Source: Escherichia phage PBECO4. From it: 64,000 nt of DNA. The notes beneath the pieces were generated by a model. It saw nothing but the letters and a program-made list of their open reading frames with translations, was not told the origin of the DNA and searched no databases. Below, one piece after another: positions 37,721-57,048 of the stretch (positions within the stretch are counted from its first letter, which is position 1; each line of letters opens with the position of its first letter). The DNA lies in the sequence record KC295538; one strand, given 5' to 3'. The translations under genes were made by a program, and so were the position numbers.

Positions 37721-37870
37721 TTTGAATCTCCTAACTTTGTGGGCCGTCGCACCATTGCCGCCCTACGAGATACATTATTGCAGTACTGATATACTTTGTC
37801 AATACTTTTTTATTAATAGTTTTAGTTCCACCAGCAGATAGTTACTCACCGTTATTAACTATATATTTTG

Positions 37871-37953
37871 GATACACTTATGCACCCTGTGGGCTGATTT
37901 GTTTCTATGCGTATATAATAGCAAAGGGACTGACCGGAGTCAATCCCTTTTTT
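37871..37953 (+). repeat. terminator-bearing repeat, copy 1 (candidate small RNA cassette)
   Basis: gatacact..gcaccctgtgggc..tatataatagcaaa + gggactgaccggagtcaatccc hairpin + T6. Confidence 0.5.
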
Positions 37954-37964
37954 ATTCTTTTTTG

Positions 37965-38165
37965 TTAGATGATTCTCCAATCATCAACGATCATGGTAAG
38001 ATACCGAACCAGTGATTCGAGTGATTCGTGTTCTCGATAGTCTGCCGCACCGCCAGCGGTACAAGTACAGCCGATTAAGCCGTTTTGCAATTCCTTAATC
38101 TGTACATCGATAAGGTTGGCTTTAGCTTCTTTCAGTACTTCAACCAGGGCGAGAGCGATAGACAT
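37965..38165 (-). CDS. hypothetical protein
   Basis: 66 aa ORF; GGAG SD. Confidence 0.55.
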   Translation of the reverse strand: MSIALALVEVLKEAKANLIDVQIKELQNGLIGCTCTAGGAADYREHESLESLVRYLTMIVDDWRII

Positions 38166-38188
38166 AATGTTTTACTCCAAACTATTGG

Positions 38189-38250
38189 CGGGAGAACTAT
38201 TCCCCCGCTCTATGTAAAACATTATACATTACTGGTTAGTACTGTCAAAT
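38189..38250 (-). promoter_or_regulatory. sigma70-like promoter + 5'-leader stem-loop (PeSL-like)
   Basis: TTGACA-N17-TATAAT then gcgggggaatagttctcccgcc hairpin. Confidence 0.65.
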
Positions 38251-38255
38251 AGTTT

Positions 38256-38513
38256 TTATGAAATATCTTCGATGTAGTCGGCCCATTTCATTTTTTCAGT
38301 ACTGTCAATGGCTACCGGATTATTTGGATCAAACCATTCACCATTACCGCAATACATACCAACGGCTACGGTTTTATAGCCATCCTGGGCCGTACACCAC
38401 GACATTGCACGATAGATATGGCCTTTAACTGGTTGCAGTACTGGTAACGTTTTATGGTCTTCTACGTAGGCCATAGCTTGAGGATTTACCCGATATTGTG
38501 TGAATTGTTCCAT
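38256..38513 (-). CDS. hypothetical protein
   Basis: 85 aa ORF. Confidence 0.55.
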   Translation of the reverse strand: MEQFTQYRVNPQAMAYVEDHKTLPVLQPVKGHIYRAMSWCTAQDGYKTVAVGMYCGNGEWFDPNNPVAIDSTEKMKWADYIEDIS

Positions 38514-38589
38514 TATGTTTCCCCTTGTAGTTAGTAAAGTTATTACATCAGTACTATCAAGCTATGTCAATAGTACTGAAATAAAACTT

Positions 38590-38814
38590 TTAGATTAGAT
38601 TATTGAGGCCGTCAATGGTAGACTCACTTTCTTCTTTCTCCCATTGTCGGTAGTACTTCCATGCTTCATGATAGGTGGCGATTAGTTCATCTTTTTGATC
38701 CTGGTTACATGCCAGTACTGAATCACGGTGAGCGGTGTTATAGATAGAATCGAATGATTTCTTCTCTTCTGCCAGGTTAGCTACTTCCCGCATCAGTTCA
38801 TCAAAGTTAGCCAT
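38590..38814 (-). CDS. hypothetical protein
   Basis: 74 aa ORF. Confidence 0.55.
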   Translation of the reverse strand: MANFDELMREVANLAEEKKSFDSIYNTAHRDSVLACNQDQKDELIATYHEAWKYYRQWEKEESESTIDGLNNLI

Positions 38815-38832
38815 TTTATTACTCCTTTTAGT

Positions 38833-38889
38833 GGGGGAGGATATCTCCCCCTATGCAAAACATTATACTTTGTTTTAGTTATTATGCAA
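38833..38889 (-). promoter_or_regulatory. PeSL-like promoter + leader hairpin
   Basis: TTGCAT..TATAAT then gggggagatatcctccccc hairpin. Confidence 0.6.
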
Positions 38890-39145
38890 GTACTTTTTTC
38901 ATATAAACATTAAATTCTACACCGCCGTAACCTTCCACGATGATATGTTTTGCGTTATCACGTTTGCACATAGTGAAACCATCGTTTACGTGTTTTGCAT
39001 TTTCCAGGGCGACATCACCGATAGCGGCACATACAGCACTAATAACGATATTCCGCAAAGTACTGGTATCATTAGCGGTCATAGTAGTTTGCATGATTAC
39101 GTTGTCGTATACGTGTGCATTGATAGTGATTTCGATAGTGTTCAT
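38882..39145 (-). CDS. hypothetical protein
   Basis: 87 aa ORF; AGGAG SD. Confidence 0.6.
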   Translation of the reverse strand: MNTIEITINAHVYDNVIMQTTMTANDTSTLRNIVISAVCAAIGDVALENAKHVNDGFTMCKRDNAKHIIVEGYGGVEFNVYMKKVLA

Positions 39146-39162
39146 GGTGTATCTCCTGGACT

Positions 39163-39224
39163 GGCGGGAGAACTATTCCCCCGCTCTATGTAAAACATTA
39201 TACGTTAATCTAACTACAATGCAA
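39163..39224 (-). promoter_or_regulatory. PeSL-like promoter + leader hairpin
   Basis: TTGCAT-N17-TATAAT then gcgggggaatagttctcccgcc. Confidence 0.6.
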
Positions 39225-39231
39225 GTACTTT

Positions 39232-39423
39232 TTAAATTTTATTTCCGATATAGTCTGGCCTGTTCTTTTCGGTCATACGCTTAAGCATTTTTTGCATATG
39301 GCTTATTGCTTGTAGTGTATCCTCTTCCAGGGATGAATCGAGATAATCAGGATCATTCTTCACCTTGCAATGATTATGATAGCGTAGTACTGCCAGTACT
39401 TTTTTAACTTCTTCAACTGTCAT
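39232..39423 (-). CDS. hypothetical protein
   Basis: 63 aa ORF. Confidence 0.5.
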   Translation of the reverse strand: MTVEEVKKVLAVLRYHNHCKVKNDPDYLDSSLEEDTLQAISHMQKMLKRMTEKNRPDYIGNKI

Positions 39424-39692
39424 AATAAGTACTCCACTTCGTTAGCTTTCAGGTTAGTATCAATCATCAATGGTTTTTTGTAGTTCACAAAACGATTAGT
39501 TTTTTCGATAGCGAATCCCATATAATCCAGCTTACTAACAGTACATTCATTCTTAAAAACTTCTTTCGCTGCATCGATGGCTGATTGCATGGATAACCGA
39601 CCATCTAAATTAATGTTTCCAAATGATCCACCAGCAGAAGTAGGATTACCGTTCATATCTTTAATGATCATAGTAGCGGAGTAGCTGGACAT
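39420..39692 (-). CDS. hypothetical protein
   Basis: 90 aa ORF. Confidence 0.55.
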   Translation of the reverse strand: MSSYSATMIIKDMNGNPTSAGGSFGNINLDGRLSMQSAIDAAKEVFKNECTVSKLDYMGFAIEKTNRFVNYKKPLMIDTNLKANEVEYLL

Positions 39693-39713
39693 AATTTTGT
39701 TTCCTTTTAGTAT

Positions 39714-39773
39714 CGGGGAGAACTATTCTCCCCTTGATGTAAACTATTATACAGTACTAATATACTTTGTCAA
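39714..39773 (-). promoter_or_regulatory. PeSL-like promoter + leader hairpin
   Basis: TTGACA-N16-TATAAT then ggggagaatagttctcccc. Confidence 0.65.
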
Positions 39774-39776
39774 TAC

Positions 39777-39998
39777 TTAATTACGTTTAAAATGATATGT
39801 GCCTTTATCATCCTGTACGCCCCATACTGATTTACCATCAACACCAGTGAAGCCGGATTGTAATTCAATATGGAAACCATTATTATCAACTACAAAAACT
39901 TTTTTATTTTCATCCCGATAACATTGATATTCTGAATCAACATTAAAGGCCGCATCATTCAGAAGATTGGAAGCGTAAATGCAAGTCATTGTAGTCAT
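39777..39998 (-). CDS. hypothetical protein
   Basis: Start moved to ATG at 39998 (MTTMTCIY...); track N-terminus MFYIERGKRFS is the translated leader hairpin. Confidence 0.55.
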   Translation of the reverse strand: MTTMTCIYASNLLNDAAFNVDSEYQCYRDENKKVFVVDNNGFHIELQSGFTGVDGKSVWGVQDDKGTYHFKRN

Positions 39999-40017
39999 GA
40001 TTTTATTCCTTATTGCC

Positions 40018-40078
40018 AGGGAGAACCGTTTCCCCCTCTCGATATAAAACATTATACTTGATTCTAAGTACAATGCAA
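40018..40078 (-). promoter_or_regulatory. PeSL-like promoter + leader hairpin
   Basis: TTGCAT-N16-TATAAT then gagggggaaacggttctccc. Confidence 0.6.
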
Positions 40079-40120
40079 GTACTTTTTTAAAATAGTTTTC
40101 AGTACTGAATACTTATATAA

Positions 40121-40210
40121 TAGATACACTTCCGCACCCTATGGGTCAGTGAGTTATCTCTCAATGAATATATAATAGCAAAGGGACTGACCGGAGTCAA
40201 TCCCTTTTTT
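40121..40210 (+). repeat. terminator-bearing repeat, copy 2 (candidate small RNA cassette)
   Basis: TATAAT-agatacacttccgcaccctatgggtc...aaagggactgaccggagtcaatccc + T6. Confidence 0.5.
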
Positions 40211-40218
40211 AATCTTTT

Positions 40219-40803
40219 TTATCGTGTTATAGTTACGGCTTTTACATCACGCTTTTTATAGTACTGATTCCAGATATTGCGGGTTAAACCGTAATCAAGT
40301 ACTTTAATAAGGCCGTTGCGATCCTGGCCGATATTCTGTTTTCTGATATCTCTTATCGTTAGTGTTGACAGTGTATCATCAACGTGTTGTAGTGCATCAG
40401 CAAAGCGGTGCTGGCGTTCAATAGCATTACGTTTAATATTGTACTTTAATTCGTTGCACGCGTTAACGTGCTTCACACTGCCTTTACTTGCAGTACTCAA
40501 CCGATCCATAACAATAAACATATTATCAGGATCGCTTAAATGCATATGCACTTTAGCGAAGAACTGTTTCAACTGAGGGCGGTCATAGTCTAAAAAATTC
40601 CATACCCTACATTCTGTTTCATTTTGTTCTACACCCGCATCACAATTCGCGACCTTGATCACTAACCGATCATTTAAAGCGAAAACTATACGGGAAGAAC
40701 CCGCACCGATGATCTCCAGACCAGCTAACCGACAAGCTGAAAGGATCTCTTTGTTGGTTTCCATTGCTGACAGGGTACGGATGAATTTAGTATAATTACG
40801 CAT
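40219..40803 (-). CDS. putative protein kinase (minimal eukaryotic-like kinase fold)
   Basis: Gly-rich loop IGAGSSRIVF, VIKV lysine, DIRKQN catalytic-loop-like, DYG (DFG-like), all in canonical order; start moved to ATG at 40803 with AAGGAG SD. Confidence 0.55.
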   Translation of the reverse strand: MRNYTKFIRTLSAMETNKEILSACRLAGLEIIGAGSSRIVFALNDRLVIKVANCDAGVEQNETECRVWNFLDYDRPQLKQFFAKVHMHLSDPDNMFIVMDRLSTASKGSVKHVNACNELKYNIKRNAIERQHRFADALQHVDDTLSTLTIRDIRKQNIGQDRNGLIKVLDYGLTRNIWNQYYKKRDVKAVTITR

Positions 40804-40831
40804 TGCATGTTCTCCTTGAGTTAATGAAACT

Positions 40832-40860
40832 ATCTTACAGTACTTTACTATCAATGGCAA
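40832..40860 (-). promoter_or_regulatory. sigma70-like promoter
   Basis: minus strand TTGCCA-N17-TAAGAT upstream of kinase-like gene. Confidence 0.5.
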
Positions 40861-41077
40861 CTACTTTTTTTACACTAACCGCGTGAATCACTTCCTTAGT
40901 GTTTTTAGTACTGAATACTTTCGCCGTGCCTTGTTCTACTGCAATACGATAACGACCGTTAACATCAACCATATTAATAAAGTCCGGTGTACTAAACCGA
41001 GTAGTTTTACATTTCAGTACTGTTAACAGTTCCACCAGCGATGTGGTTTCTTTGATACGTTTTTCTAAAGTAATCAT
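40835..41077 (-). CDS. hypothetical protein
   Basis: Start moved to ATG at 41077 (MITLEKRIKE...). Confidence 0.5.
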   Translation of the reverse strand: MITLEKRIKETTSLVELLTVLKCKTTRFSTPDFINMVDVNGRYRIAVEQGTAKVFSTKNTKEVIHAVSVKKVVAIDSKVL

Positions 41078-41130
41078 TTTGTTTTCCCCGTGTTGGTATG
41101 TACATATAGTACTAAAACATTTGAGTACTG

Positions 41131-41385
41131 TCAACGTGATATTAGTTTTATTTTCTTATTATATTGTTGATGTTCATAAAGGTTTATCTTTCCTGTGTTC
41201 TCTATTACTATTCTGTTGTTAGTGTCTACATCGATTACACGCAGTTTTCCGTTGCTTAACTTCCTTGGTAATAGGTTACCATTAATAAACTCATTAGCAA
41301 GCTGTACGGCCTTTGTGATGATTCTCTGAGGTGCTTTATAGTGTACCCGCAAGATATTATCTTTAGATAGTTGTACCTTAATCAT
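41131..41385 (-). CDS. hypothetical protein
   Basis: 84 aa ORF. Confidence 0.55.
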   Translation of the reverse strand: MIKVQLSKDNILRVHYKAPQRIITKAVQLANEFINGNLLPRKLSNGKLRVIDVDTNNRIVIENTGKINLYEHQQYNKKIKLISR

Positions 41386-41406
41386 TTTAGTTTATCCTAT
41401 AAAAAA

Positions 41407-41425
41407 GGCGGGAACTGATCCCGCC
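41407..41425 (-). terminator. intrinsic terminator
   Basis: ggcgggaactgatcccgcc hairpin followed on minus strand by T6. Confidence 0.6.
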
Positions 41426-41447
41426 GTGTTGTTAGTACTGCAAGTTA

Positions 41448-41843
41448 TTAGATAACCTGTCGGCGTTTACTATATACTGTTACACGATTACCCTTACGGT
41501 CGTGTCGGATCTCTTTCTGGTTGCGTACCAGTTCACTTGGACGCTTCAGGTTTGCCAGGTGATCCGCGTGAGTCCAAGCGGTATGGTTTGTCTGTACTTT
41601 GATATCAGAATCAGCGATAAACTCATCTTGTGCATCAAGTATTGACGCCAGTAAATCCGCTCGTTTTAGTTCTGCTGCTGTTAGTACTGGCTCCGGTGAA
41701 TTCACAATATCAGAGATCTCTTTGAACTGTACGGCCCAGCGTTGACCTTTCGGTGCATCTTTGCCCATGTCTTTAAATGTTTCGCCTTCCTCGCGTGCAA
41801 CAATACGGGCAGCTTCACGGGTAGCGTAGAATTTAGTAATCAT
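41448..41843 (-). CDS. hypothetical protein (paralog of 54341..54607)
   Basis: shared KFYATREAARIxAR..GxTFKDMG and DRKGNRVTVY; start moved to ATG at 41843. Confidence 0.65.
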   Translation of the reverse strand: MITKFYATREAARIVAREEGETFKDMGKDAPKGQRWAVQFKEISDIVNSPEPVLTAAELKRADLLASILDAQDEFIADSDIKVQTNHTAWTHADHLANLKRPSELVRNQKEIRHDRKGNRVTVYSKRRQVI

Positions 41844-41938
41844 GGTATACATCCTATTAGTTGAGTTAGTACTACAAGTTAGAGTCTATTATAAAGTACT
41901 ATCTGGGCAATGTCAAATAGTACTTTAAATGGATTCTA

Positions 41939-42262
41939 TTACATGTCTTTCTTACGTTTTACATCGTGGTAGCGAACTGTTATTTCTTTGTTGATCTCTT
42001 CCTCGATGCGGTGAATAACTGTTTCTTTCGGGTTGAAACCTATAACGGTTTCTTTAATGATCTCCAAGCCCGTGTATTCTCCTTGTGTACCGTAACCGTA
42101 AGTAAAGGTTTCATGTCCCAGGTCTTCCCAGCGGTCGCCAATTAACGCGGACACGTAGCAAGAGTGGTAAGTGTTACCGTTCCGATCAGTCCAGCGATTA
42201 ACTTTAATGTCAAAGGAGGTTACAATTTTCAGTTCTACTTTCTGGGTAAGGATCATAGCCAT
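41939..42262 (-). CDS. hypothetical protein (paralog of 48709..49032)
   Basis: shared RWTDxxGNTYHSC.VS and DVKRKKD. Confidence 0.65.
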   Translation of the reverse strand: MAMILTQKVELKIVTSFDIKVNRWTDRNGNTYHSCYVSALIGDRWEDLGHETFTYGYGTQGEYTGLEIIKETVIGFNPKETVIHRIEEEINKEITVRYHDVKRKKDM

Positions 42263-42286
42263 TTTTATTTCTCTCTCTCTTTGTTA

Positions 42287-42350
42287 GGAGGGGAACCGTT
42301 TCCCCTCGCTTGATGTAAACTATTATACAGTACTAAGATACTTTGTCAAT
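42287..42350 (-). promoter_or_regulatory. PeSL-like promoter + leader hairpin
   Basis: TTGACA-N17-TATAAT then ggggaaacggttcccc. Confidence 0.65.
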
Positions 42351-42352
42351 AC

Positions 42353-42535
42353 TTATTTTTTGGAAAGTTTACGCATTAATTCTACGCTTTCTTGTGAACG
42401 TTTTGCTACCTGGCAATCTGTATGGGTAGTAAACATTTTTGTATAGTCTGACGGTTTGCCACCGAACCGAGCGGCACGCTCACGGGCACTTGGAACTAAT
42501 ACGATTTCTTTCTTACAGATAGTGCACTTAGCCAT
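42353..42535 (-). CDS. hypothetical small protein (possible Cys/His metal-binding)
   Basis: 60 aa; CTICKK ... HTDC. Confidence 0.5.
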   Translation of the reverse strand: MAKCTICKKEIVLVPSARERAARFGGKPSDYTKMFTTHTDCQVAKRSQESVELMRKLSKK

Positions 42536-42557
42536 TTTTATTTCTCTCTCTTTGTTA

Positions 42558-42616
42558 GGAGGGGAACCATTCCCCCCTTGATGTAAACTATTATACAGTA
42601 CTAAGATACTTTGTCA
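42558..42616 (-). promoter_or_regulatory. PeSL-like promoter + leader hairpin
   Basis: TTGACA-N16-TATAAT then gggggaatggttcccc. Confidence 0.65.
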
Positions 42617-42620
42617 ATAC

Positions 42621-42896
42621 TTAATTATTGTAAATGCAGTGAATAGTGATAAAGTTTTTACGACCGTAAACCTGCAAATCAATATCAATGTAGTGCTTAT
42701 CAAGTACATCCTCGACGCTTAACGCGGTGTCGTGAATATCTTCGTAGAATTGAGGATCTACAATCTTGCTTAAGTCATCCGGCGTTAACTTATCGTTAAG
42801 CCATTGAACCGCCTGGATATCTGCTTCACGTTTCCAGTCTTCCAGGTTAGTAGTCAGTACTTGCTCGATTTCGTTAGCTGTCAGTAGAATCCGCAT
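42621..42896 (-). CDS. hypothetical protein
   Basis: 91 aa ORF. Confidence 0.6.
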   Translation of the reverse strand: MRILLTANEIEQVLTTNLEDWKREADIQAVQWLNDKLTPDDLSKIVDPQFYEDIHDTALSVEDVLDKHYIDIDLQVYGRKNFITIHCIYNN

Positions 42897-42961
42897 TTTT
42901 ATGTTTCCTTATCAGTAGTTGATGTAAGTATTATACTCGTTTACTTTCTATTGTCAATCTT

Positions 42962-43060
42962 TTTTTATCAGGGGAGTTTTTCGTATGTCTTACTCCTGGA
43001 CTACTTAACGGGGTTACTTGTTTTGTTCCCCGTCCTGATGTAAAACATTATACTTGATTC
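42962..43060 (-). promoter_or_regulatory. long conserved 5'-leader element (copy 1 of 3) with promoter
   Basis: atcaggggagtttttcgt..cttactcctgg..acgggg..ccccgtcctgatgtaaaacattatac; near-identical at 53653-53760, variant at 50455-50555. Confidence 0.5.
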
Positions 43061-43093
43061 TAAGTACAATGCAAGTACTTTTTAAAAATAGTT

Positions 43094-43258
43094 TTACTTA
43101 CTCATATTAACAGGCTTGAACGGTGGCAATGTAAGATCATGCGGGGTTAAACTATCATGCTTTGCCCACATACCGGAATCCCTACGGAATAATACCTTAT
43201 TGTTTTTTATACGATAAAAGTTACCATTATCAGTGTTTTTGTACCATATCATTTTCAT
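43094..43258 (-). CDS. small hypothetical protein (54 aa)
   Basis: ATG ORF MKMIWYKNTDNGNFYRIK...; AGGAG SD; below track cutoff. Confidence 0.45.
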   Translation of the reverse strand: MKMIWYKNTDNGNFYRIKNNKVLFRRDSGMWAKHDSLTPHDLTLPPFKPVNMSK

Positions 43259-43343
43259 TTACTCCTGGTTATGTCGTTATTAAACATTATACGGGGTTAT
43301 AGATAGTTTTCAAGTATATTTCAGTACTAGCCACCAGCATATA

Positions 43344-43430
43344 ATAGATACATTTATGCACCCTATGGGCTGATTTTTTTCTATGCGTATATAATAGCAA
43401 AGGGACTGACCGGAGTCAATCCCTTTTTTA
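43344..43430 (+). repeat. terminator-bearing repeat, copy 3 (candidate small RNA cassette)
   Basis: TATAAT-agatacatttatgcaccctatgggctg...gggactgaccggagtcaatccc + T6. Confidence 0.5.
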
Positions 43431-43437
43431 ATTCTTT

Positions 43438-43587
43438 TTAAACTTCTTTCGGGTTGCGATATGTGATAGCGTTCGGGTACATTTGTTTAATGTTATTCCA
43501 TGCCTGGTTAACATTGTAACCACTTGAGCGAATCAGTTGGTTACTACCGACACCTTGAAACACTACTTCGAATAAGAATTCTTTCAT
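43438..43587 (-). CDS. small hypothetical protein (49 aa)
   Basis: ATG ORF MKEFLFEVVFQGVGS...; GAGGTG SD. Confidence 0.4.
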   Translation of the reverse strand: MKEFLFEVVFQGVGSNQLIRSSGYNVNQAWNNIKQMYPNAITYRNPKEV

Positions 43588-43756
43588 GCTTTCACCTCGC
43601 TATCTGCTTTACCTTTACGCCAGGACATTACTAATTGTTCGCGTTGCCATAAATCGAGTGATACAAAAAGTTTTGCGGTATCACTTTTAGGATACTCGCC
43701 AGTAGTACCTAACCGATAAAACAGATCTTTCAGTACTGATAATTCTACTTGAATCA
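43584..43756 (-). CDS. small hypothetical protein (57 aa)
   Basis: ATG ORF MIQVELSVLKDLFYR...; AGGAG SD; ATGA overlap. Confidence 0.4.
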
Positions 43757-43863
43757 TTTTATTACTCCTGATTGATTTAATACTTCTACTATTGCATGAA
43801 TGATCATAAGTACAGCTAAAACAATAATCATCGGATTCATTTGCATAAGCTGTACTCCTTCTA

Positions 43864-44076
43864 TTAATCTTTCAGCCAATGATCTTGAATGAATTTTTCA
43901 CAGAATCCCTGTTTCATGGATTCCAACAGGCGTTCGCGGTGAGCGTTTGCGAATTGCTCAGTACTATGCGTTACGCCAGGCTGATAACGTGATACCCCAT
44001 CCGGTCCGATGTATTGTACATCCCACGGTTTTTCGTTAGTATCAGACCATTTACGAACGATTAGTTGACCTTGCAT
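43864..44076 (-). CDS. hypothetical protein
   Basis: 70 aa ORF. Confidence 0.55.
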   Translation of the reverse strand: MQGQLIVRKWSDTNEKPWDVQYIGPDGVSRYQPGVTHSTEQFANAHRERLLESMKQGFCEKFIQDHWLKD

Positions 44077-44092
44077 TTTTCTTTCCTCTCAG

Positions 44093-44153
44093 TGGGGAGA
44101 ATCATTTCTCCCCTTCATGTAACTTATTATACAGTACTAGATTATCTTGTCAA
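44093..44153 (-). promoter_or_regulatory. PeSL-like promoter + leader hairpin
   Basis: TTGACA-N16-TATAAT then ggggagaaatgattctcccc. Confidence 0.65.
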
Positions 44154-44159
44154 TAGTTT

Positions 44160-44483
44160 TTATTCACCTTGTTTGAATTTAGTTTTCTCCATTGATTCCA
44201 TGATTGCAACCAATACGCCGTGGATCTCGCTTAACGCGGAATCACTGAAAGCATTAATGAATAGTCGATCATTCTCGCGAATATTTTTAATGTACTTTTC
44301 AGCAGTAGTTGCGAATTCATTCAACGGTAGATCAAATGCTTTATCCCATGATGGATGGCGTAATTGTAACAGTACTGGATTATCACGATCACCAGGGGAA
44401 AACGTACCAGTGATGAAACATACGCCCGGAATACTTTCGAACTGGCAACGGACTTCCTTTGTGATAGTAGTATGAATGTACAT
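44160..44483 (-). CDS. hypothetical protein
   Basis: 107 aa ORF; GAGGA SD. Confidence 0.6.
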   Translation of the reverse strand: MYIHTTITKEVRCQFESIPGVCFITGTFSPGDRDNPVLLQLRHPSWDKAFDLPLNEFATTAEKYIKNIRENDRLFINAFSDSALSEIHGVLVAIMESMEKTKFKQGE

Positions 44484-44510: not shown

Positions 44511-44705
44511 TTACAGTTTATGAATCAATTCTTTATCTAAGCGATAGCGTACATTATTAATAGTAACGGCATTGTTTTTAATGCTACGCTGTACAGGTCC
44601 ACCAGCAATAACAAATGTTGCTTTATTACCCCGAACAATGATAGCACTTCCAGGATTACCGAAATCATCTTGTACTAAAATACTTGATAAGTTTTCCATT
44701 TTCAT
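44511..44705 (-). CDS. hypothetical protein
   Basis: 64 aa ORF. Confidence 0.55.
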   Translation of the reverse strand: MKMENLSSILVQDDFGNPGSAIIVRGNKATFVIAGGPVQRSIKNNAVTINNVRYRLDKELIHKL

Positions 44706-45567: not shown

Positions 45568-45672
45568 TGTTAAACGTCCTGTAACGCATTCTAACGAGAT
45601 AAACGGTTTAGTACTGGCATTGTATAGGGTAATGAATTAAAGCCCACCAGCGTTAACCAGTGGGCTATAATC

Positions 45673-46960: not shown

Positions 46961-47050
46961 AGATACACTCCTGCACCCTGTGGGCTAGTGAGCTATCTCT
47001 CAATGATTATATAATAACAAAATGGCTGACCGAAGTCAACCACTTTTTTC
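46961..47050 (+). repeat. terminator-bearing repeat, copy 4 (variant)
   Basis: TACAAT-agatacactcctgcaccctgtgggct...tggctgaccgaagtcaacca + T6. Confidence 0.45.
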
Positions 47051-49734: not shown

Positions 49735-49893
49735 GTACTTTTTATTACTTTTTGCAAAATACTTTAAACGCTCTCAATCGCATTCTAACGACCTTAACGC
49801 CACCAGCTAGGGCGATGTATCAGATAATCAGTTTAATGCGTTAGAATCGATTCTAGGCGGTGCTGGTGGACTGGAATACTACAGACACAAAAA

Positions 49894-50434: not shown

Positions 50435-50454
50435 TTAAAGTTTAGTTTACGTTT

Positions 50455-50555: not shown

Positions 50556-50627
50556 TTGTGGTAATGTCAACTACTATTTTAAAACTATTTTTAAAGTATG
50601 CAGTACTACGATAATACAAAAACAAAA

Positions 50628-50649
50628 AAGCCCACTGTTTAAGGTGGGC
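50628..50649 (-). terminator. intrinsic terminator
   Basis: same hairpin + T-run as 49894-49915. Confidence 0.65.
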
Positions 50650-50667
50650 TAGTGATTCAGTACTATA

Positions 50668-50967
50668 TTATAAACAGTTAATTACTCCGGTGTGCGTTAC
50701 TTTCTCAGTATCCATAACCGTGACCGATCCACGCTTAGTACTTACATCGTAATAAATTGTCGTGCTACCTTTTTCGTCTTCTTCATGGAACGGGCCGCTT
50801 TTAAATGCTTCTGGCTGGATCTCTAAATCCTTTAAAACAATCTCGCCAGTACTTTCATCTGTCATCGCAACAGTGCACTGAATGAATTTTTCACTACTTA
50901 CATCTAACGACGCATTAACAGCGAAAGAGGAAACAGATAAAGCCAGGGCGATGATTGCAATTTTCAT
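50668..50967 (-). CDS. exported small protein (signal peptide)
   Basis: MKIAIIALALSVSSFAVNA / SLD: hydrophobic core with AxA-type cleavage motif. Confidence 0.6.
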   Translation of the reverse strand: MKIAIIALALSVSSFAVNASLDVSSEKFIQCTVAMTDESTGEIVLKDLEIQPEAFKSGPFHEEDEKGSTTIYYDVSTKRGSVTVMDTEKVTHTGVINCL

Positions 50968-50987
50968 TTGATTATCCTTAGTTACCA

Positions 50988-51046
50988 GGGGGAACCGCTC
51001 CCCCGTGCGATGTAAAATATTGTACAGTACTAAAAACTAATTGCAA
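50988..51046 (-). promoter_or_regulatory. PeSL-like promoter + leader hairpin
   Basis: TTGCAA..TACAAT then gggggagcggttccccc. Confidence 0.6.
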
Positions 51047-51051
51047 GTACT

Positions 51052-51288
51052 TTATGATTTTTTATAAAACATTTCGGCAGTAATATTTTTACCCGTTGGT
51101 TGTACTTTATCCAGAATTTTTTGATGCCCTGGCCGTCCAAATGAATATGATCCGTAAACCGTAAACCAGTAGTTACCCTCAGTGTTTACATGTACAGCAC
51201 AATAGGGAACGCCCCGCGATTCATCACCAATAAAGTGTGATACCGTTCCCGTTACATTAGCAGACGTTGATTTGATTTGTTCAAGCAT
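51052..51288 (-). CDS. hypothetical protein
   Basis: 78 aa ORF. Confidence 0.55.
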   Translation of the reverse strand: MLEQIKSTSANVTGTVSHFIGDESRGVPYCAVHVNTEGNYWFTVYGSYSFGRPGHQKILDKVQPTGKNITAEMFYKKS

Positions 51289-51309
51289 TTTCTTATTCCT
51301 TAGTTACCA

Positions 51310-51363
51310 GGGGGAACCGCTCCCCCTATGCAAAACATTATACGCGTTTAAAAACTAATAGCA
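51310..51363 (-). promoter_or_regulatory. PeSL-like promoter + leader hairpin
   Basis: promoter then gggggagcggttccccc. Confidence 0.55.
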
Positions 51364-51397
51364 AGTATTTTAATAAAAAGTATTTGAAAAATAATTG

Positions 51398-51426
51398 TTG
51401 ACAACTGCATCCAGTACTGGCATAAT
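51398..51426 (+). promoter_or_regulatory. plus-strand sigma70-like promoter (antisense to flanking genes)
   Basis: TTGACA-N17-CATAAT, reading into ..ctaacccaccgggtgc.. element. Confidence 0.5.
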
Positions 51427-51506
51427 TACTACATCAAGACGAAACAGTCACTAACCCACCGGGTGCCGAGATCCGTCTATTAAATGATTCAGTACTTAAC
51501 AATAAA

Positions 51507-51524
51507 GGGGATCAATCGATCCCC
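51507..51524 (-). terminator. intrinsic terminator
   Basis: ggggatcaatcgatcccc perfect palindrome + T-run on minus strand. Confidence 0.55.
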
Positions 51525-51530
51525 TATGTA

Positions 51531-51752
51531 TTACTTAGTAAGGTATAAACAGAAGTCACCTTTATTTGCTACGCCGCCAGTGTAACGCGATGAATAGTTA
51601 GAAACGTCCTGGACTTCTGCTATTACCAGTGTATCATCATTCAATTCGTCGCAGAAGCAAACGGCTGGATCTTTTACGCCGATCTTGTCGGCATGTTCCC
51701 GCATAGATTTAACCAGTGCTTCCAGTTGAGAAAGAGTAGTGATATTAGCCAT
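51531..51752 (-). CDS. hypothetical protein
   Basis: Start moved to ATG at 51752 (MANITTL...). Confidence 0.55.
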   Translation of the reverse strand: MANITTLSQLEALVKSMREHADKIGVKDPAVCFCDELNDDTLVIAEVQDVSNYSSRYTGGVANKGDFCLYLTK

Positions 51753-51771
51753 TGTATTTTCCTCATTACCA

Positions 51772-51830
51772 GGGAGAACCATTTCTCCCCTCTATGTAAA
51801 CTATTATACAGTACTGAAAACTAATTGCAA
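51772..51830 (-). promoter_or_regulatory. PeSL-like promoter + leader hairpin
   Basis: TTGCAA-N16-TATAAT then ggggagaaatggttctccc. Confidence 0.65.
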
Positions 51831-51836
51831 GTACTT

Positions 51837-52025
51837 TTAATTAAATTCCATAAAATCATTCTCAACGTGCACAACAATTTGATTGTTTTTAAAGTCCGCA
51901 GCGAACTCGATGCAATCATAAACCGCTTTTTGTGTTACAATGCTATGAGTACCAATCGGATTAATAGGGGATTGAATTGTTTCAATCTCGTTCCCTTGCT
52001 CATTAACAATTAAAATATTAAACAT
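51837..52025 (-). CDS. hypothetical protein
   Basis: 62 aa ORF. Confidence 0.5.
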   Translation of the reverse strand: MFNILIVNEQGNEIETIQSPINPIGTHSIVTQKAVYDCIEFAADFKNNQIVVHVENDFMEFN

Positions 52026-52081
52026 CGCTGTTACTCCTGGGTAGTGTTAACTCGATATAAAGTATTATACGCCTTTATTGC

Positions 52082-52288
52082 TTAGTGTCCAGTACTTTTT
52101 AAAACATATTCATAAACACTACGCACATCATTGATCATCGCCTGGCGGTTAGCAGGTAACGCACCAGGATCGCCACTATCCCAGGCATTGATAAAACTCC
52201 CCAAATCATGAAAGATTTTATTCTGTAAGCCGATTAACTGCAATTCTTTTTCTTCAAGCTCTTTGATACGGTCAATTAAAAGACTCAT
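52082..52288 (-). CDS. hypothetical protein
   Basis: Start moved to ATG at 52288 (MSLLIDRIKE...); GAGGAttatctaATG context shared with next gene. Confidence 0.55.
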   Translation of the reverse strand: MSLLIDRIKELEEKELQLIGLQNKIFHDLGSFINAWDSGDPGALPANRQAMINDVRSVYEYVLKSTGH

Positions 52289-52305
52289 TAGATAATCCTC
52301 AGTAC

Positions 52306-52593
52306 TTAATTGTAAGATCCGCAACGGTTACAATAGTGCCCGTCTTCCTCGTCATCGTCAACGAATTGACCGACGAAATTATCTACTTTCTCTTTGAGAT
52401 TCTGATAATTGTTTTCAACTTCCTTTAGACGTTCCTGGTAGTATTCCAGGGCTTGCACATACGCCGCCTCAGCCGTTTTCGCTCTTAAGGCTAAATTCAT
52501 GCCACGCGTTTCATCGTACATCCAAAAGCCATCGGTGCACTCACTGATTGACAATGATTTGGTTAACACTTTATAGTCAATTACTTTGCTCAT
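52306..52593 (-). CDS. hypothetical protein
   Basis: Start moved to ATG at 52593 (MSKVIDYKV...) after ggcgggtgtggttcccgcc hairpin. Confidence 0.55.
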   Translation of the reverse strand: MSKVIDYKVLTKSLSISECTDGFWMYDETRGMNLALRAKTAEAAYVQALEYYQERLKEVENNYQNLKEKVDNFVGQFVDDDEEDGHYCNRCGSYN

Positions 52594-52649
52594 TAGATAA
52601 TCCTCAGTAAAGGCGGGAACCACACCCGCCATTGATTCAGTACTGAATG

Positions 52650-52889
52650 TTACATTCCAACCATTGCAGCACGGATCGCCGTAGTGCTATACTTGAATCC
52701 GTCCGGTGTTGTAGTAGTACCGTTGGCTTTTAATCTGCGGTACATACATTGGGCCGCAATATCTTTAGTTTTACATTGTGCGATGCAACTTTGAGCAAGC
52801 CGATATAATGACTCACCGTTATTAATCCACAATGAAACATTCCAATGAGTTTTGTTTTTGTGCCCGTTGTAAGTTTTAGTAGTAGCCAT
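52650..52889 (-). CDS. hypothetical protein (paralog of 54698..54937)
   Basis: 79 aa; shared GHKNKTHWNVSLWINN and TPDGFKYSTTAIRAAMVGM. Confidence 0.65.
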   Translation of the reverse strand: MATTKTYNGHKNKTHWNVSLWINNGESLYRLAQSCIAQCKTKDIAAQCMYRRLKANGTTTTPDGFKYSTTAIRAAMVGM

Positions 52890-52911
52890 TTTTAAATCCT
52901 CGTTTAATTGA

Positions 52912-52973
52912 GCGGGAGAACCATTCCCCCGCCTCGATATAAAGTATTATACGCTTTTAAACTTAGTTTGCAA
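52912..52973 (-). promoter_or_regulatory. PeSL-like promoter + leader hairpin
   Basis: TTGCAA..TATAAT then gcgggggaatggttctcccgc. Confidence 0.65.
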
Positions 52974-52985
52974 GTACTTTTTAAA

Positions 52986-53597
52986 TTAATATGCGATTGA
53001 TTCTACTACGTCATCAATAACATTGAATTGATACTCGTTACCCTCGATCAGTGCCGTGATGTTCTCAGTAGTGAATTGATCCTCATATGCATTCTCTAAA
53101 TCACGGTACAACTTGCGGGACAATTCACGAATAGTATCAGTGAGTAGTTCCTCAAGCTCATTAACTAACGTTTCTTGTTTTGCGGTTAAATCAGTGTAAG
53201 CCGATTCAATGTACCCGCTTACAGTATTCTCATGCGAGTAGTGGGAGTGCGAACGCTTTACACTCATCGCCAAATCATCTTCATTCAGCAAGTGACGGAT
53301 TGAGCGATACTTAGTTAATGCTCTTACCTTGCGTAAAAACTTCACTGCGTCAACGTGGTCAGTACTGATTGATGCACCGTCACCCTGGGACCAAAAACCA
53401 CTGAATTGTATTTCAGCTTCATTAATGCCATATTCCGGTAGTACTGTTTCTTTATAGTATTCAATTTCACTTTCAGAAAAATAATTGTCGTTTGAGTTTT
53501 TTTCACGTTCCCGAACCAGTTCGATAGCTGACGTTTGTTGTTCTGCGTTCAATTCAGAAAAATCCATAACGAAAGTAGTAGTAGTGATAGTTTTCAT
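52986..53597 (-). CDS. hypothetical protein
   Basis: 203 aa ORF; largest gene of cassette region. Confidence 0.6.
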   Translation of the reverse strand: MKTITTTTFVMDFSELNAEQQTSAIELVREREKNSNDNYFSESEIEYYKETVLPEYGINEAEIQFSGFWSQGDGASISTDHVDAVKFLRKVRALTKYRSIRHLLNEDDLAMSVKRSHSHYSHENTVSGYIESAYTDLTAKQETLVNELEELLTDTIRELSRKLYRDLENAYEDQFTTENITALIEGNEYQFNVIDDVVESIAY

Positions 53598-53652
53598 TTT
53601 GTAACCCTCATTCAGTAGTTGATGTAAGTATTATACGCTTTTAAAAACATTT

Positions 53653-53760
53653 GTCAAACTATTTTATCAGGGGAGTTTTTCGTGTGCCTTACTCCTGGGC
53701 TACTTAACGGGAAGTTACTTATTTCGTTCCCCGTCCTGATGTAAAACATTATACGCCTTT
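53653..53760 (-). promoter_or_regulatory. long conserved 5'-leader element (copy 3) with tandem promoters
   Basis: near-identical to 42962-43060; second TTGACA..TATAAT promoter closer to the ATG. Confidence 0.5.
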
Positions 53761-53818
53761 AAACATAGTTTGCAAGTACTTTTTAAAAATAGTTTTCAGT
53801 ACTGAATATTAAAAAAGT

Positions 53819-53847
53819 ATTGACAGCATTATCAAGTACTGGCATAA
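53819..53847 (+). promoter_or_regulatory. plus-strand sigma70-like promoter
   Basis: TTGACA-N17-CATAAT; convergent with a minus-strand TTGACT..CATAAT promoter ~100 bp away. Confidence 0.5.
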
Positions 53848-54022
53848 TATACCACATGACAACAGCTAACCCACCGGGTGCACAATTGTAACTATACTAA
53901 ACTAATTTTTCTATAGATACACTCCCGCACCCTATGGGCTACGGCTTATCTGCCAATGAATACATTATGCCAGTACTGACAAAATAAGTCAATACCGGCA
54001 ATTGTAAAGATTTGTAAACTAC

Positions 54023-54253
54023 TTATACTGCAATCGCGTCCAGGCTATAATAATAATAAGTGCCGTATTGGTGTACTTTATTACCTTTTATTTCAGTACT
54101 GAATGAATCCGAACGATTTGCATATGATGTTAATTTAAAGTACTTTGATTTGCTGATACGTTGCCATACACCACAGATCCGCTGTAAGTAAGTAGTTTTA
54201 TTCGTGGTAGTATCTTTTACGGTTTTAACTTCAGTCATATACATATTAGTCAT
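54023..54253 (-). CDS. hypothetical protein
   Basis: 76 aa ORF. Confidence 0.55.
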   Translation of the reverse strand: MTNMYMTEVKTVKDTTTNKTTYLQRICGVWQRISKSKYFKLTSYANRSDSFSTEIKGNKVHQYGTYYYYSLDAIAV

Positions 54254-54273
54254 TTTTATTACTCCAGGTTATA

Positions 54274-54333
54274 GGCGGGAAGAGTTCCCGCTCTCGATGT
54301 AAAACATTATACGCCTTTAAACATAGTTTGCAA
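54274..54333 (-). promoter_or_regulatory. PeSL-like promoter + leader hairpin
   Basis: TTGCAA..TATAAT then gcgggaactcttcccgcc. Confidence 0.65.
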
Positions 54334-54340
54334 GTACTTT

Positions 54341-54607
54341 TTATTCAAGTACTGCAATCTTTTTAGTACGGTACACGGTCACGCGGTTGCCCTTTCGGTC
54401 GAGCTTTATTTCTACCACTCGACGCGATACACTATCGGGACTTTTTAAGGCCGCTAACCAGTACTGTAATGATCTGGCTGTACTACGCTTTACAATGGCC
54501 CAACGTTTACCACGTTCCGATTGTACGCCCATATCTTTAAACGTTGCCCCGTCCTGGCGTGCGGCGATCCGAGCTTGTTCACGCGTCGCAAAATACTTAA
54601 TATTCAT
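54341..54607 (-). CDS. hypothetical protein (paralog of 41448..41843)
   Basis: Start moved to ATG at 54607 (MNIKYFATREQ...). Confidence 0.65.
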   Translation of the reverse strand: MNIKYFATREQARIAARQDGATFKDMGVQSERGKRWAIVKRSTARSLQYWLAALKSPDSVSRRVVEIKLDRKGNRVTVYRTKKIAVLE

Positions 54608-54697
54608 GCTGTTGCCCTTATCGTTGGTGTATGAATAAAACACTATTATAAAGTACTATCGCAAAAAATGATAGTACTTTAAATAAATTCTATTCTA

Positions 54698-54937
54698 TTA
54701 CATTCCAACCATCGCCGCACGGATCGCAGTAGTGCTATACTTAAAGCCGTCCGGTGTTTTATCTTGTCCAGTCTGTTCTAAAAATAGCATCATATGACGG
54801 GCCGCATCATTACGATTAGTATTGGCGGCAATAAAGTCCTGGGCCAACCGATACAATCCCTCATCGTTATTAATCCAAAGGCTTACATTCCAATGAGTTT
54901 TGTTTTTGTGACCTAAGAACATTTTTGATTTAGCCAT
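54698..54937 (-). CDS. hypothetical protein (paralog of 52650..52889)
   Basis: Start moved to ATG at 54937 (MAKSKMFLGHKNK...). Confidence 0.65.
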   Translation of the reverse strand: MAKSKMFLGHKNKTHWNVSLWINNDEGLYRLAQDFIAANTNRNDAARHMMLFLEQTGQDKTPDGFKYSTTAIRAAMVGM

Positions 54938-54957
54938 TTTTTTAATCCTCTTATATA

Positions 54958-55016
54958 GTGGGGAACTATTCCCCACCTGATGTAAAGTATTATACGCTTT
55001 TAAATTTAGTTTGCAA
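54958..55016 (-). promoter_or_regulatory. PeSL-like promoter + leader hairpin
   Basis: TTGCAA..TATAAT then gtggggaatagttccccac. Confidence 0.65.
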
Positions 55017-55019
55017 GTA

Positions 55020-55253
55020 CTATTTTTTCAGTACTGGTAAACCTTTGATCTCACCTGGCTGTACTTCCTCAAAGGCGACCGCCATCATACGGCTATCATC
55101 TTCCTTACATTCTTCCATCGCATCACAAAAATGATTAATAACGTCCGGTGCAACGTCAACCACATCAAACAAGCCAACCTCAGTGCAACGGCTTAAAGCG
55201 TTTAATAGGTCAGTCAGTGCAACGGATTGAGAAACAGTTAAAATAGTACTCAT
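55020..55253 (-). CDS. hypothetical protein
   Basis: 77 aa ORF. Confidence 0.55.
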   Translation of the reverse strand: MSTILTVSQSVALTDLLNALSRCTEVGLFDVVDVAPDVINHFCDAMEECKEDDSRMMAVAFEEVQPGEIKGLPVLKK

Positions 55254-55273
55254 ACAATTAATCTCTTAATTAT

Positions 55274-55333
55274 AGTGGGGAACTATTCCCCACCTGATGT
55301 AAAACATTATACGCTTTTAAACTTAGTTTGCAA
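55274..55333 (-). promoter_or_regulatory. PeSL-like promoter + leader hairpin
   Basis: same hairpin sequence as 54958-54976. Confidence 0.65.
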
Positions 55334-55347
55334 GTACTTTATTAAAC

Positions 55348-55710
55348 TTATTTGTAAATTTTGCCACTGTCAGCCCATACCAGGAAACGAGGCATATTAT
55401 CCCATGCATCTTGTTTTAAATTTAAACCGTGCAATTCCTCAGTAGTTGCCATCCCTGGTACTGGCTTACTACACACCGCGAAATTTTCGCCCATATACTG
55501 ATAAACCATCGTCAAATCATTTGAGATCATCTTATGGATCATCGCATCAAGCATCACGGTAGCGGCGTATTGTTCACGCTTAAGCGGCAGCATTTTAATC
55601 AGTTCGCGGTATGCGTCAATGTGAGTTTTAACCGTTGCCGCCGGAAGATCTTTCATCTCGTCGCGGAAGTTAACCAGGTTAGCAATAATTTTGGTGATTT
55701 GAGTTGCCAT
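55348..55710 (-). CDS. hypothetical protein
   Basis: Start moved to ATG at 55710 (MATQITKII...). Confidence 0.6.
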   Translation of the reverse strand: MATQITKIIANLVNFRDEMKDLPAATVKTHIDAYRELIKMLPLKREQYAATVMLDAMIHKMISNDLTMVYQYMGENFAVCSKPVPGMATTEELHGLNLKQDAWDNMPRFLVWADSGKIYK

Positions 55711-55733
55711 CGTTTTAATCTCTCTTAAAGTGT

Positions 55734-55793
55734 AGCGGGAACACTTCCCGCTCTCGATGTAAAACATTATACGCTTTTATCAGTACGGTGCAA
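55734..55793 (-). promoter_or_regulatory. PeSL-like promoter + leader hairpin
   Basis: promoter then agcgggaagtgttcccgct. Confidence 0.6.
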
Positions 55794-55825
55794 GTACTTT
55801 CTACAAATACTTTTAAAATAGTTTT

Positions 55826-55917
55826 CTTTCTATATAGGAGTACTATTATTCAGTACTGAATCAATCCAGGGGAACTATCTTTCTATATAGGAGTACTATT
55901 ATTCAGTACTGAATCAA
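55826..55917. repeat. tandem direct repeat (2 x ~40 bp)
   Basis: ctttctatataggagtactattattcagtactgaatcaa twice, 13-bp spacer. Confidence 0.7.
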
Positions 55918-56069
55918 CCAAATCACTACTACACCCCATAAAACGGCCTCAGACGCATTCTAACGCATTAATACACCTAAGCTATACATTTGCACCACTC
56001 CCAACAATCCAGGGCGTTACGGGCCGTTTAAACGCGTTAAATTATTTTCAATTATTTTGTTTTTAGGTA

Positions 56070-56097
56070 TTGACTTGATCCTGAAAAAGCGTATAAT
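56070..56097 (+). promoter_or_regulatory. plus-strand sigma70-like promoter
   Basis: TTGACT-N16-TATAAT in ORF-free region. Confidence 0.5.
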
Positions 56098-56284
56098 TAC
56101 TACATAGACGCGAGAAAGCGGAAACCCCAGAGGGTGCGGAATTACGCCCAAAATTCAAGATATAAAAAAAGGATACACTCCCGCACCCTAGCAGGTAAAC
56201 GCACTTTCTCAGTACTGAATTATAGTACCATAGTCCGGCCCAGGATGGCAAGCAAATTAATTAAAACTTTTTTCATCCAGGGTA

Positions 56285-56312
56285 TTGCTTTATTTTTCCA
56301 GTACTGTATAAT
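56285..56312 (+). promoter_or_regulatory. plus-strand sigma70-like promoter
   Basis: TTGCTT-N16-TATAAT. Confidence 0.45.
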
Positions 56313-56409
56313 AGTTCCATCAAGTCGAGAAAGACTCAAGCCCACCGGGTGCATAGTTACGCCCAAAATTCAGTACTGAAAAAATTTTTAAAAATATCCG
56401 TCCAGGCCG

Positions 56410-56438
56410 TTGACATTGCCCCCAGTTTATAAGATAAT
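56410..56438 (+). promoter_or_regulatory. plus-strand sigma70-like promoter
   Basis: TTGACA-N17-GATAAT upstream of iteron-like array. Confidence 0.5.
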
Positions 56439-56534
56439 GATTCCAGATTCAGAAAAATCTAACTCCAGATACTGCGGGGAAACTATCCCCACGCGGTAGG
56501 GGAACTATTGGAAAAAACAAAATAAAATTTTGAT

Positions 56535-56655
56535 TTAGCCGTCTATACTTCCAGACGTGTAACCATCTAGCCGTTTAGCCGTCCAAACGTCTAGCCATCC
56601 AGCCATCCAGAAATCTAGCCGTTTAGCCGTCTAGATGGATAGCCATCTTTACTTC
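56535..56655. repeat. iteron-like direct repeat array (TAGCCGTY / AGCCATC units)
   Basis: ttagccgtc, ctagccgtttagccgtc (twice), ctagccatccagccatccag, agatggatagccatc within ~120 bp. Confidence 0.65.
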
Positions 56656-57048
56656 CAGACTTCTGGAGGGCTAGACATATCTACGTCCAAAATCCACCCA
56701 GGGTAACTACGCCCAAAATCCGTCAGTACTATACCATAGATCTATCTTTTGAAAGGGAGTATTCAGTACTGCCACAATAGCCCTCACTATGTTACCCTAG
56801 GAGGATGAAGACTATCATGTAGTACTGAATACTGTTAGAGGGAATCCACCAGCTTGTGCTGGTGGCATAATGCTTTAGATTAAAATCAGTACTGACACCA
56901 TTCTGTTAATATCAGTACTGTTATTACGATTTTCATATGAGGTTCAAAAAGATGTACCACCACAGGAGGAACTATCTTTTCTGTACTGTCTCACGACAGG
57001 AGGTAGAGTAAATGAATTGTTCGCAGCAACTCATCACCCTATGTAGAA

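Follow-up and report, generated by a model that had tools for sequence, protein, structure and literature searches.

Why does the octamer GCTGGTGG, identical to the Chi sequence of Escherichia coli, recur in one part of the 64,000-nt stretch of Escherichia phage PBECO4 DNA analysed here (sequence record KC295538; referred to below as the window)? An exact search of both strands recovered ten copies across the window, where 0.36 are expected and where 100 dinucleotide-preserving shuffles gave a maximum of two. All ten lie between positions 36467 and 57442 (20,976 bp), the other 43 kb having none (p = 1.4e-5), and this interval corresponds to the direct terminal repeat (DTR) whose ends were mapped in related phages. 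From sequence comparison, we consider it likely that these octamers are genuine host Chi sites maintained by selection, and that they would form a functional array which tames RecBCD where the injected DNA terminates and helps RecA to recombine the two repeats. The repeat and its sites are listed below in window coordinates; minus-strand sites read CCACCAGC on the plus strand, and the ends referred to are the physical ends of the phage DNA.

36467..57442, minus strand: single collapsed copy of the ~21-kb DTR, located by BLAST to vB_Ec-M-J
37828..37835, minus strand: intergenic Chi, 25 nt upstream of a -35 box
39628..39635, minus strand: Chi in the small gene 39420-39692, frame GCT GGT GGn
41032..41039, minus strand: Chi in a small gene, frame nnG CTG GTG Gnn
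43331..43338, minus strand: intergenic Chi, 17 nt upstream of a -35-like TTGAAA
44599..44606, minus strand: Chi in the small gene 44511-44705, frame GCT GGT GGn
45641..45666, minus strand: terminator-like hairpin AGCCCACTGGT-TAAC-GCTGGTGGGCT, the 3' arm of which is Chi 45644-45651
49800..49869, both strands: intergenic inverted pair of Chi sites 54 nt apart (minus strand 49800-49807, plus strand 49862-49869), ~7.6 kb from the left end
56846..56865, both orientations: terminal Chi palindrome CCACCAGC-ttgt-GCTGGTGG (minus-strand site at 56846, plus-strand site at 56858), 578-597 bp from the left end

The initial annotation had listed seven of these sites and claimed an excess of the octamer. All seven exist, with four of their coordinates one base low, and the excess is stronger than it was said to be. 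The description of the sites as all intergenic was right for those seven but not for the full set: a cross-check against the annotation of the related phage vB_Ec-M-J placed seven sites in non-coding DNA and three (39628, 41032 and 44599, which had been missed) within small minus-strand genes. The octamer also stands out from comparable words. It is the commonest octamer with at least six G/C in the region (ten copies, against five for the runner-up), none of the 167 others of the same composition exceeds 4-5 copies, and all 24 of its one-mismatch neighbours together reach just 3-6 copies. At ~0.48 sites per kb, the repeat has about twice the Chi density of the E. coli chromosome (one per 4.6 kb, or 0.22 per kb; PMC12315714), although its G+C content is only 38%.

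Jumbo myoviruses of the genus Asteriusvirus (121Q/PBECO4-type), which were isolated on E. coli and Salmonella, match the window at 90-98% identity. An effect on RecBCD had initially been proposed only for the case of an enterobacterial host; judging from the records of these relatives, the host is indeed E. coli or Salmonella, so that the octamer would be its host's true Chi. The annotated DTR of vB_Ec-M-J (1-21525; 21,525 bp) aligns by BLAST to the window from 57442 down to ~36467. The window is reversed relative to the maps of its relatives: position 57442 marks the left physical end (genome position 1), and ~36467 is the inner boundary of the repeat as well as the right physical end of its second copy. 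Because unique sequence from both genome ends borders the single repeat copy, one on either side, the assembly has merged two copies into one. Among relatives, the DTR of fEgEco12 was placed at 20,993 bp by PhageTerm and restriction digests (PMC13070987) and that of Sharanji is 20,668 bp (PMC11895373).

The repeat holds ~50 small, mutually separated genes that all run on the minus strand, and each is served by a sigma70-type promoter of its own. Between 36400 and 56300, ten minus-strand promoters match the consensus perfectly (TTGACA-16/17-TATAAT), and the overall gene layout matches that of a host-takeover early module. The variant TTGCAA-16-TATAAT is also numerous on this strand of the same interval, at about one per small gene. 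Small genes outside the repeat are tightly packed or overlapping and lack individual promoters, and runs of overlapping open reading frames of ~60-70 aa occur on both sides of it (57443-64000 and 1-36466). The right-end unique region of the relatives (vB_Ec-M-J 333206-351685) carries, on the opposite strand, 14 RCC1-like ('regulator of chromosome condensation') paralogues arranged in tandem, and these contain three Chi sites of their own. A tRNA scan of the window found none.

A count over an entire genome had been suggested as a check on the excess, and the complete vB_Ec-M-J genome was rebuilt for this purpose. The enrichment held: the DTR contains 11 Chi in 21.5 kb (0.51 per kb) and the unique 335.5 kb contain 23 (0.069 per kb), making the DTR 7.5-fold denser (p = 3e-6), with only 0.2-0.44 sites predicted for this DTR by Markov models of order 0-4. 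The sites are also better conserved than their surroundings. Nine of the ten window octamers have been retained unchanged by vB_Ec-M-J, fEgEco12 and 121Q alike, compared with a background of 36% for octamers of the repeat in general (p = 7e-4) and 31% for G/C-rich ones (p = 2e-4), and the Chi octamers are thus apparently under purifying selection. Those with orthologs intact in all three genomes include 37828, 39628 (in the gene 39420-39692, which matches phrog_8099) and 43331. The coding sites at 41032 and 44599 correspond to vB_Ec-M-J positions 16454 and 13199, within the coding sequences EcMJ_041 and EcMJ_031, respectively. Gains and losses by single substitution are seen at orthologous Chi positions, for example GCTGGCGG, GCTGATGG and CCGTCAGC.

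Could the excess instead be incidental, arising from base composition, from codon usage, from a dispersed repeat in intergenic DNA or from an intake of host sequence? The G+C content of the repeat slightly exceeds that of the remaining genome (38.6% vs 35.4%), yet fewer than 0.5 sites are predicted from composition or by Markov models of orders up to 4, and DNA of 38% G+C is not E. coli-like. Chi elsewhere in the genome lies mainly on the sense strand of genes, as a coding origin would have it; codon usage was nevertheless rejected as the cause, as seven of the ten sites are non-coding and the neighbouring coding DNA has none. The sites at 37828 and 43331 both lie downstream of a shared terminator/promoter repeat, and the initial annotation had indeed allowed that the octamers might simply belong to a repeated element. 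However, the distance from the shared repeat to Chi is 35 nt in one case and 8 nt in the other, out of register, and a third copy of the repeat (40180-40207) has no Chi after it, so that Chi as a component of this element was also rejected. The flanks of the intergenic sites, compared in the sense orientation, differ and have no in-register homology, for which reason the cluster as a whole is not a repeated element either. One-mismatch variants are not enriched, three sites are coding, and the settings are varied, ranging from positions upstream of promoters or -35 boxes to hairpin arms, coding sequence and the gene-free non-coding leader at the terminus. We regard an incidental origin as scarcely credible and, to our satisfaction, refuted.

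The shared element is itself a 28-nt hairpin, AAAGGGATTGACTCCGGTCAGTCCCTTT, with GCTATTATAT after it; copies are found at 37923-37950, 40180-40207 and 43399-43426, with a variant at 47019-47046. It resembles a terminator that has, within its stem, a -35 box of the next promoter (TTGACT-17-TATTAT).

Chi sites had been described as forming hairpin arms twice, and this proved correct for one pair only. The sites at 56846 and 56858 pair perfectly over 8 bp around a 4-nt loop (DNA folding free energy -9.9 kcal/mol, z-score -3.7), giving a stem with neither a T-run nor an upstream gene. Its plus-strand arm (56858-56865) is in the correct orientation for RecBCD entering at the left terminus. The distance of this palindrome from the end is kept in the relatives (588/600 in vB_Ec-M-J, 578/590 in fEgEco12 and 577/589 in 121Q), and it is present even in the distant phages fENko-Kae01 (484/496, loop ttaa) and 7t3. 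The pair at 49800 and 49862, by contrast, was rejected as a hairpin, since it folds no better than shuffled sequence (z-score -0.25). Both members are intact in vB_Ec-M-J and fEgEco12, and the left-oriented one, 49862, which is the second and last Chi oriented for the left terminus, has become CCGTCAGC in 121Q. A further Chi-armed hairpin that the initial annotation did not contain lies at 45641-45666 (folding free energy -9.2 kcal/mol, z-score -4.4) and is followed by TTTAATT; the same structure, with a co-varying stem (GGCCAC...GTGGCC), ends the fENko-Kae01 DTR at 19354. Window Chi sites outside 45641-45666 and 56846-56865 are not in hairpins. The sequence CGTTAGAATGCG adjoins Chi 45644 and 49800 on the minus strand (45600-45640 and 49770-49800) and is inverted between 49800 and 49862 (49830-49850); it may be a regulator-binding site.

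The same Chi cluster was found in four more RaK2-like lineages, represented by fENko-Kae01/7t3, RaK2, XbC2 and XaC1. A kinase-like protein is shared at 37-40% identity, and their repeats are otherwise essentially non-alignable with that of the window, with patches of similarity of no more than 350 bp. The counts are as follows.

Klebsiella phage fENko-Kae01: mapped DTR of 19,736 bp with 14 Chi; two in the next 25 kb
Salmonella phage 7t3 (Kae01 lineage): 15 Chi, comprising 14 in the sense orientation and the antisense arm of the terminal palindrome
RaK2: equivalent early region with nine Chi; none in the next 16 kb
XbC2 (OP292654): mapped DTR of 17,581 bp (PMC11273794) with nine Chi; none in adjacent DNA
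XaC1 (OR258281): mapped DTR of 32,031 bp with 12 Chi; none in the next 18 kb

In RaK2, XbC2 and XaC1 too, Chi ranks first among the G/C-rich octamers of the repeat. Asteriusvirus and the Kae01 group both have the palindrome CCACCAGC-N4-GCTGGTGG at 0.5-0.6 kb from the left terminus, and several Chi copies in Kae01 and XbC2 fall within promoter spacers, between the -35 and -10 boxes. Placement of Chi at such tolerant sites suggests that the octamer itself is what selection acts on. When IMG/VR was scanned for CCACCAGC-N4-GCTGGTGG, 46 contigs were returned, of which one was a relative (121Q) and the rest unrelated chance matches, and no lineage was added. A DksA-like gene was also tried as a repeat marker, in Alcyoneusvirus KP13-7, and was rejected because it led to a non-repeat region; with one Chi in 40 kb, this region serves as a control only. 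The kinase-like repeat gene proved the better marker.

The palindrome AGTACT is another abundant word of these repeats, with 130 copies in that of the window where ~7 are expected. It occurs 31 times as CAGTACTG and 17 times as AAAGTACTTGCAA beside -35 boxes, and 11 times in the gene-free terminal 1.2 kb, being densest at 56252-57442. The repeats of Kae01, RaK2, XbC2 and XaC1 also carry it, at 5.5-7.5 per kb. Within the early region it may serve as an operator or as a motif bound by a protein.

The presence of GCTGGTGG in all five RaK2-like lineages, two of them recorded on Xanthomonas, raises the question of whether it is a cis element of the phage family, such as a target of an early regulator, of a packaging or terminus factor or of a phage helicase-nuclease, that matches Chi by coincidence. 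Several copies near or within early promoters and the conserved palindrome ~0.5 kb from the terminus would fit such a role. However, the sites have no fixed register to promoters, genes or terminators, and a phage 8-mer would equal the host Chi by chance only about once in 33,000. Moreover, the unrelated phages K and SPO1 cluster different motifs, each the Chi of its own host. The repeat of phage K (KF766114, 1-8486) carries 20 copies of the Staphylococcus aureus Chi GAAGCGG (13 on the top strand and seven on the bottom), and the following 41.5 kb (8487-50000) carry none. GAAGCGG is the top G/C-rich heptamer of that repeat, its one-mismatch neighbours totalling seven, and its copies occupy the same kinds of setting as above: a promoter spacer, coding sequence and two palindromic hairpins with Chi in both arms (4595/4615 and 6235/6246). 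In SPO1 (NC_011421), the Bacillus subtilis Chi AGCGG occurs at 3.5 per kb in the repeat (1-13185) and at 1.1 per kb in 13186-50000 (p = 9e-8). As a pentamer it is less specific, and it ranks third among the repeat-enriched pentamers, behind CGCTC and CCCGC, which may overlap with an extended motif. As cross-controls, GCTGGTGG is absent from phage K and GAAGCGG from the entire window. Since the motif tracks the host in K and SPO1, a phage-specific element that equals Chi by accident is hard to reconcile with the data, and we consider it highly improbable.

These comparisons invite a broader and more tentative idea, on which we lean slightly towards doubt, namely that loading long repeats with host Chi is a general convergent strategy of virulent long-repeat phages, with RaK2-like phages, Kayvirus and SPO1 as examples. 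Such phages would recruit RecBCD or AddAB together with RecA in the first minutes of infection, so as to shield their ends and, by invasion of one repeat by another, to join or replicate the genome ahead of any phage recombinase. If so, the Chi content of a repeat would predict the Chi motif of the host, and hence the true host of XaC1 and XbC2. No report of Chi clusters in these repeats, those of phage K and SPO1 included, was found in the open-access literature and bioRxiv, a search that does not extend to older subscription literature such as reviews of Twort-like phages.

Returning to host Chi as the identity of the octamers, the location of the cluster gives this reading mechanistic sense: the cluster coincides exactly with the DTR, and the DTR forms the physical DNA ends, where RecBCD would load. 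According to text from the Smith laboratory, Chi is recognised solely by RecBCD coming from the 3' side of GCTGGTGG, so that sites should be oriented with respect to a double-strand end. Eight window sites point the right way to act on an enzyme entering at the right terminus, at distances of 1,369, 3,169, 4,573, 6,872, 8,140, 9,185, 13,341 and 20,387 bp, the first of them being 37828, and the other two, at 585 and 7,581 bp, are oriented for the left terminus. The eight are those on the sense (top) strand in genome orientation. When the window, Kae01, RaK2 and XbC2 were pooled, the strand ratio was 35 sense to seven antisense (p = 7.5e-6 against 0.5 and 1e-3 against 0.6), base composition predicting a sense share of 58%; XaC1, left out of the pool, has a ratio of 9:3. 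Wherever the ends have been mapped, RecBCD entering at the right would reach its first correctly oriented Chi 376-1,369 bp from the terminus. For the left end, one lies within 0.2-0.6 kb in three of four, the left end of XaC1 being the exception.

Direct observation covers the sites as such, their restriction to the repeat, the way they point and their persistence in several lineages, and a scheme may be built on this as follows. The virion DNA is linear with one repeat at each end, and the injected ends would be the sole entry points for RecBCD, assuming that the enzyme has access to them and recognises Chi in vivo. On meeting Chi, RecBCD would quit degrading the 3'-ended strand and load RecA there, so that degradation would be limited to the redundant repeat and the unique genes would be spared. 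The RecA-coated top-strand 3' tail of one repeat could then invade the other copy, or that of a sister genome. By such invasion the genome would be converted into a circle or a concatemer, and DNA synthesis running the same way as early transcription could be primed. All of this would precede the appearance of the UvsX/UvsY-type recombination proteins of the phage. RecBCD recognises an individual Chi with a probability of about 0.3-0.4. At that rate, the six sites nearest the right end, within ~9 kb of it, would give ~90% conversion and leave more than 11 kb of homology. The smaller number of left-end sites suggests that this end is less exposed, or that it is chiefly the recipient of invasion.

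The outcome of Chi recognition could be recombination or protection only. In the latter case, the array would act as a shield that turns off the RecBCD nuclease, keeps the genome safe until replication or phage inhibitors take over and deprives CRISPR (clustered regularly interspaced short palindromic repeats) adaptation of RecBCD degradation products, with concatemers formed later by phage UvsX/UvsY. Chi sites do bound spacer-acquisition hotspots at free DNA ends (PMC8860600). The dense spacing at the right end (eight sites in 20 kb) fits a stop before unique DNA equally well, and with a complete T4-like recombination set in the family, host recombination may be dispensable. A shield should, however, protect both ends equally, whereas the bias is 8:2, and the sites are found in the sole part of the genome that is duplicated and recombinable, as in P1. 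RecBCD also couples Chi recognition to RecA loading, so that a recombinogenic tail would arise regardless. We therefore think it unlikely that protection is the only function.

Several observations weigh against a recombinogenic Chi array. The left end has only two oriented sites, which at ~0.3 per site amount to ~50% cumulative recognition, and the asymmetry between the ends is accounted for by inference alone. T5 (NC_005859), the classic coliphage of the long-repeat kind, has a 10.2-kb repeat with only two copies of GCTGGTGG (8127 and 8689, both on the top strand); this repeat is the first-step-transfer DNA, and the next 40 kb carry no copy. XbC2 and XaC1 carry the enteric octamer, and yet their isolation strains are described as Xanthomonas vesicatoria. 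Their genomes have 32-39% G+C, their repeats lack the Pseudomonas-type GCTGGCGC, and XbC2 shows >50% similarity to phages of Cronobacter, Serratia, Pectobacterium and Erwinia. The hosts may have been misidentified, the phages may have changed host recently, or Xanthomonas may have a similar Chi. There may also be an end-protecting protein or an early RecBCD inhibitor; PHROG scans of 20 repeat proteins for either function returned only families of unknown function or no match. Finally, the annotation of vB_Ec-M-J includes a UvsX-like recombinase, UvsY, SSB, an SbcCD-like nuclease and endonuclease VII, and lambdoid genomes with their own Rec module usually lack Chi. Because the family encodes recombination proteins, the rule of Chi instead of a Rec module is inapplicable to it, and a role in the minutes before these proteins are available is the most economical reading. 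A search of the open-access literature and bioRxiv found no data on whether growth of these phages depends on RecBCD or RecA.

Earlier cases, namely P1 and the lambdoid phages that lack Rec genes, had suggested that phages either bring their own recombination or borrow that of the host through Chi. If the array described here is functional, it would identify the earliest DNA transaction of these infections and explain one constraint on a fast-evolving host-takeover region. It would also predict how RecBCD or AddAB, CRISPR adaptation and end-sensing defences see such phages. The repeats further offer a sequence-based route to inferring the Chi of a host, or to checking a recorded host, for phages that are candidates for therapy.

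The closest precedent is P1, in which (as in P7 and D6) Chi is concentrated near the packaged ends, where the redundancy must recombine via RecA and RecBCD (10.1101/2021.07.08.451572; PMC12315714). As in P1, host Chi is over-represented here in terminally repeated DNA, both coding and non-coding, and recombination of the repeats by RecBCD, Chi and RecA after injection has been proposed. P1 differs in being a temperate phage packaged by the headful, with a variable redundancy of ~5-10 kb and with Chi in near-random orientation throughout its genome (50 in 95 kb). The present phage, in contrast, is a virulent myovirus of ~350-380 kb with an exact, fixed 21-kb repeat, strand-biased and confined Chi, and UvsX/UvsY-type genes of its own. 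With the lambdoid LLS phages (PMC12315714) it shares terminal clustering, an orientation bias towards one end (20/23 in LLS, 8/10 here) and a Chi density about twice that of E. coli. Phages of the LLS type have cohesive ends and no long repeat, and they lack recombination genes and RecBCD inhibitors; absence of a recombination module, a trait of that class, does not extend to the present family. A long exact repeat of small early genes with strong host-type promoters is a feature shared with T5, SPO1 and the Kayvirus phage K, although these belong to unrelated families with other hosts and Chi motifs, and T5 has just two Chi. Exploitation of Chi is thus a strategy already known from P1 and LLS phages; what is new here is its occurrence in a virulent jumbo phage with a recombination set of its own and with Chi confined to the DTR.

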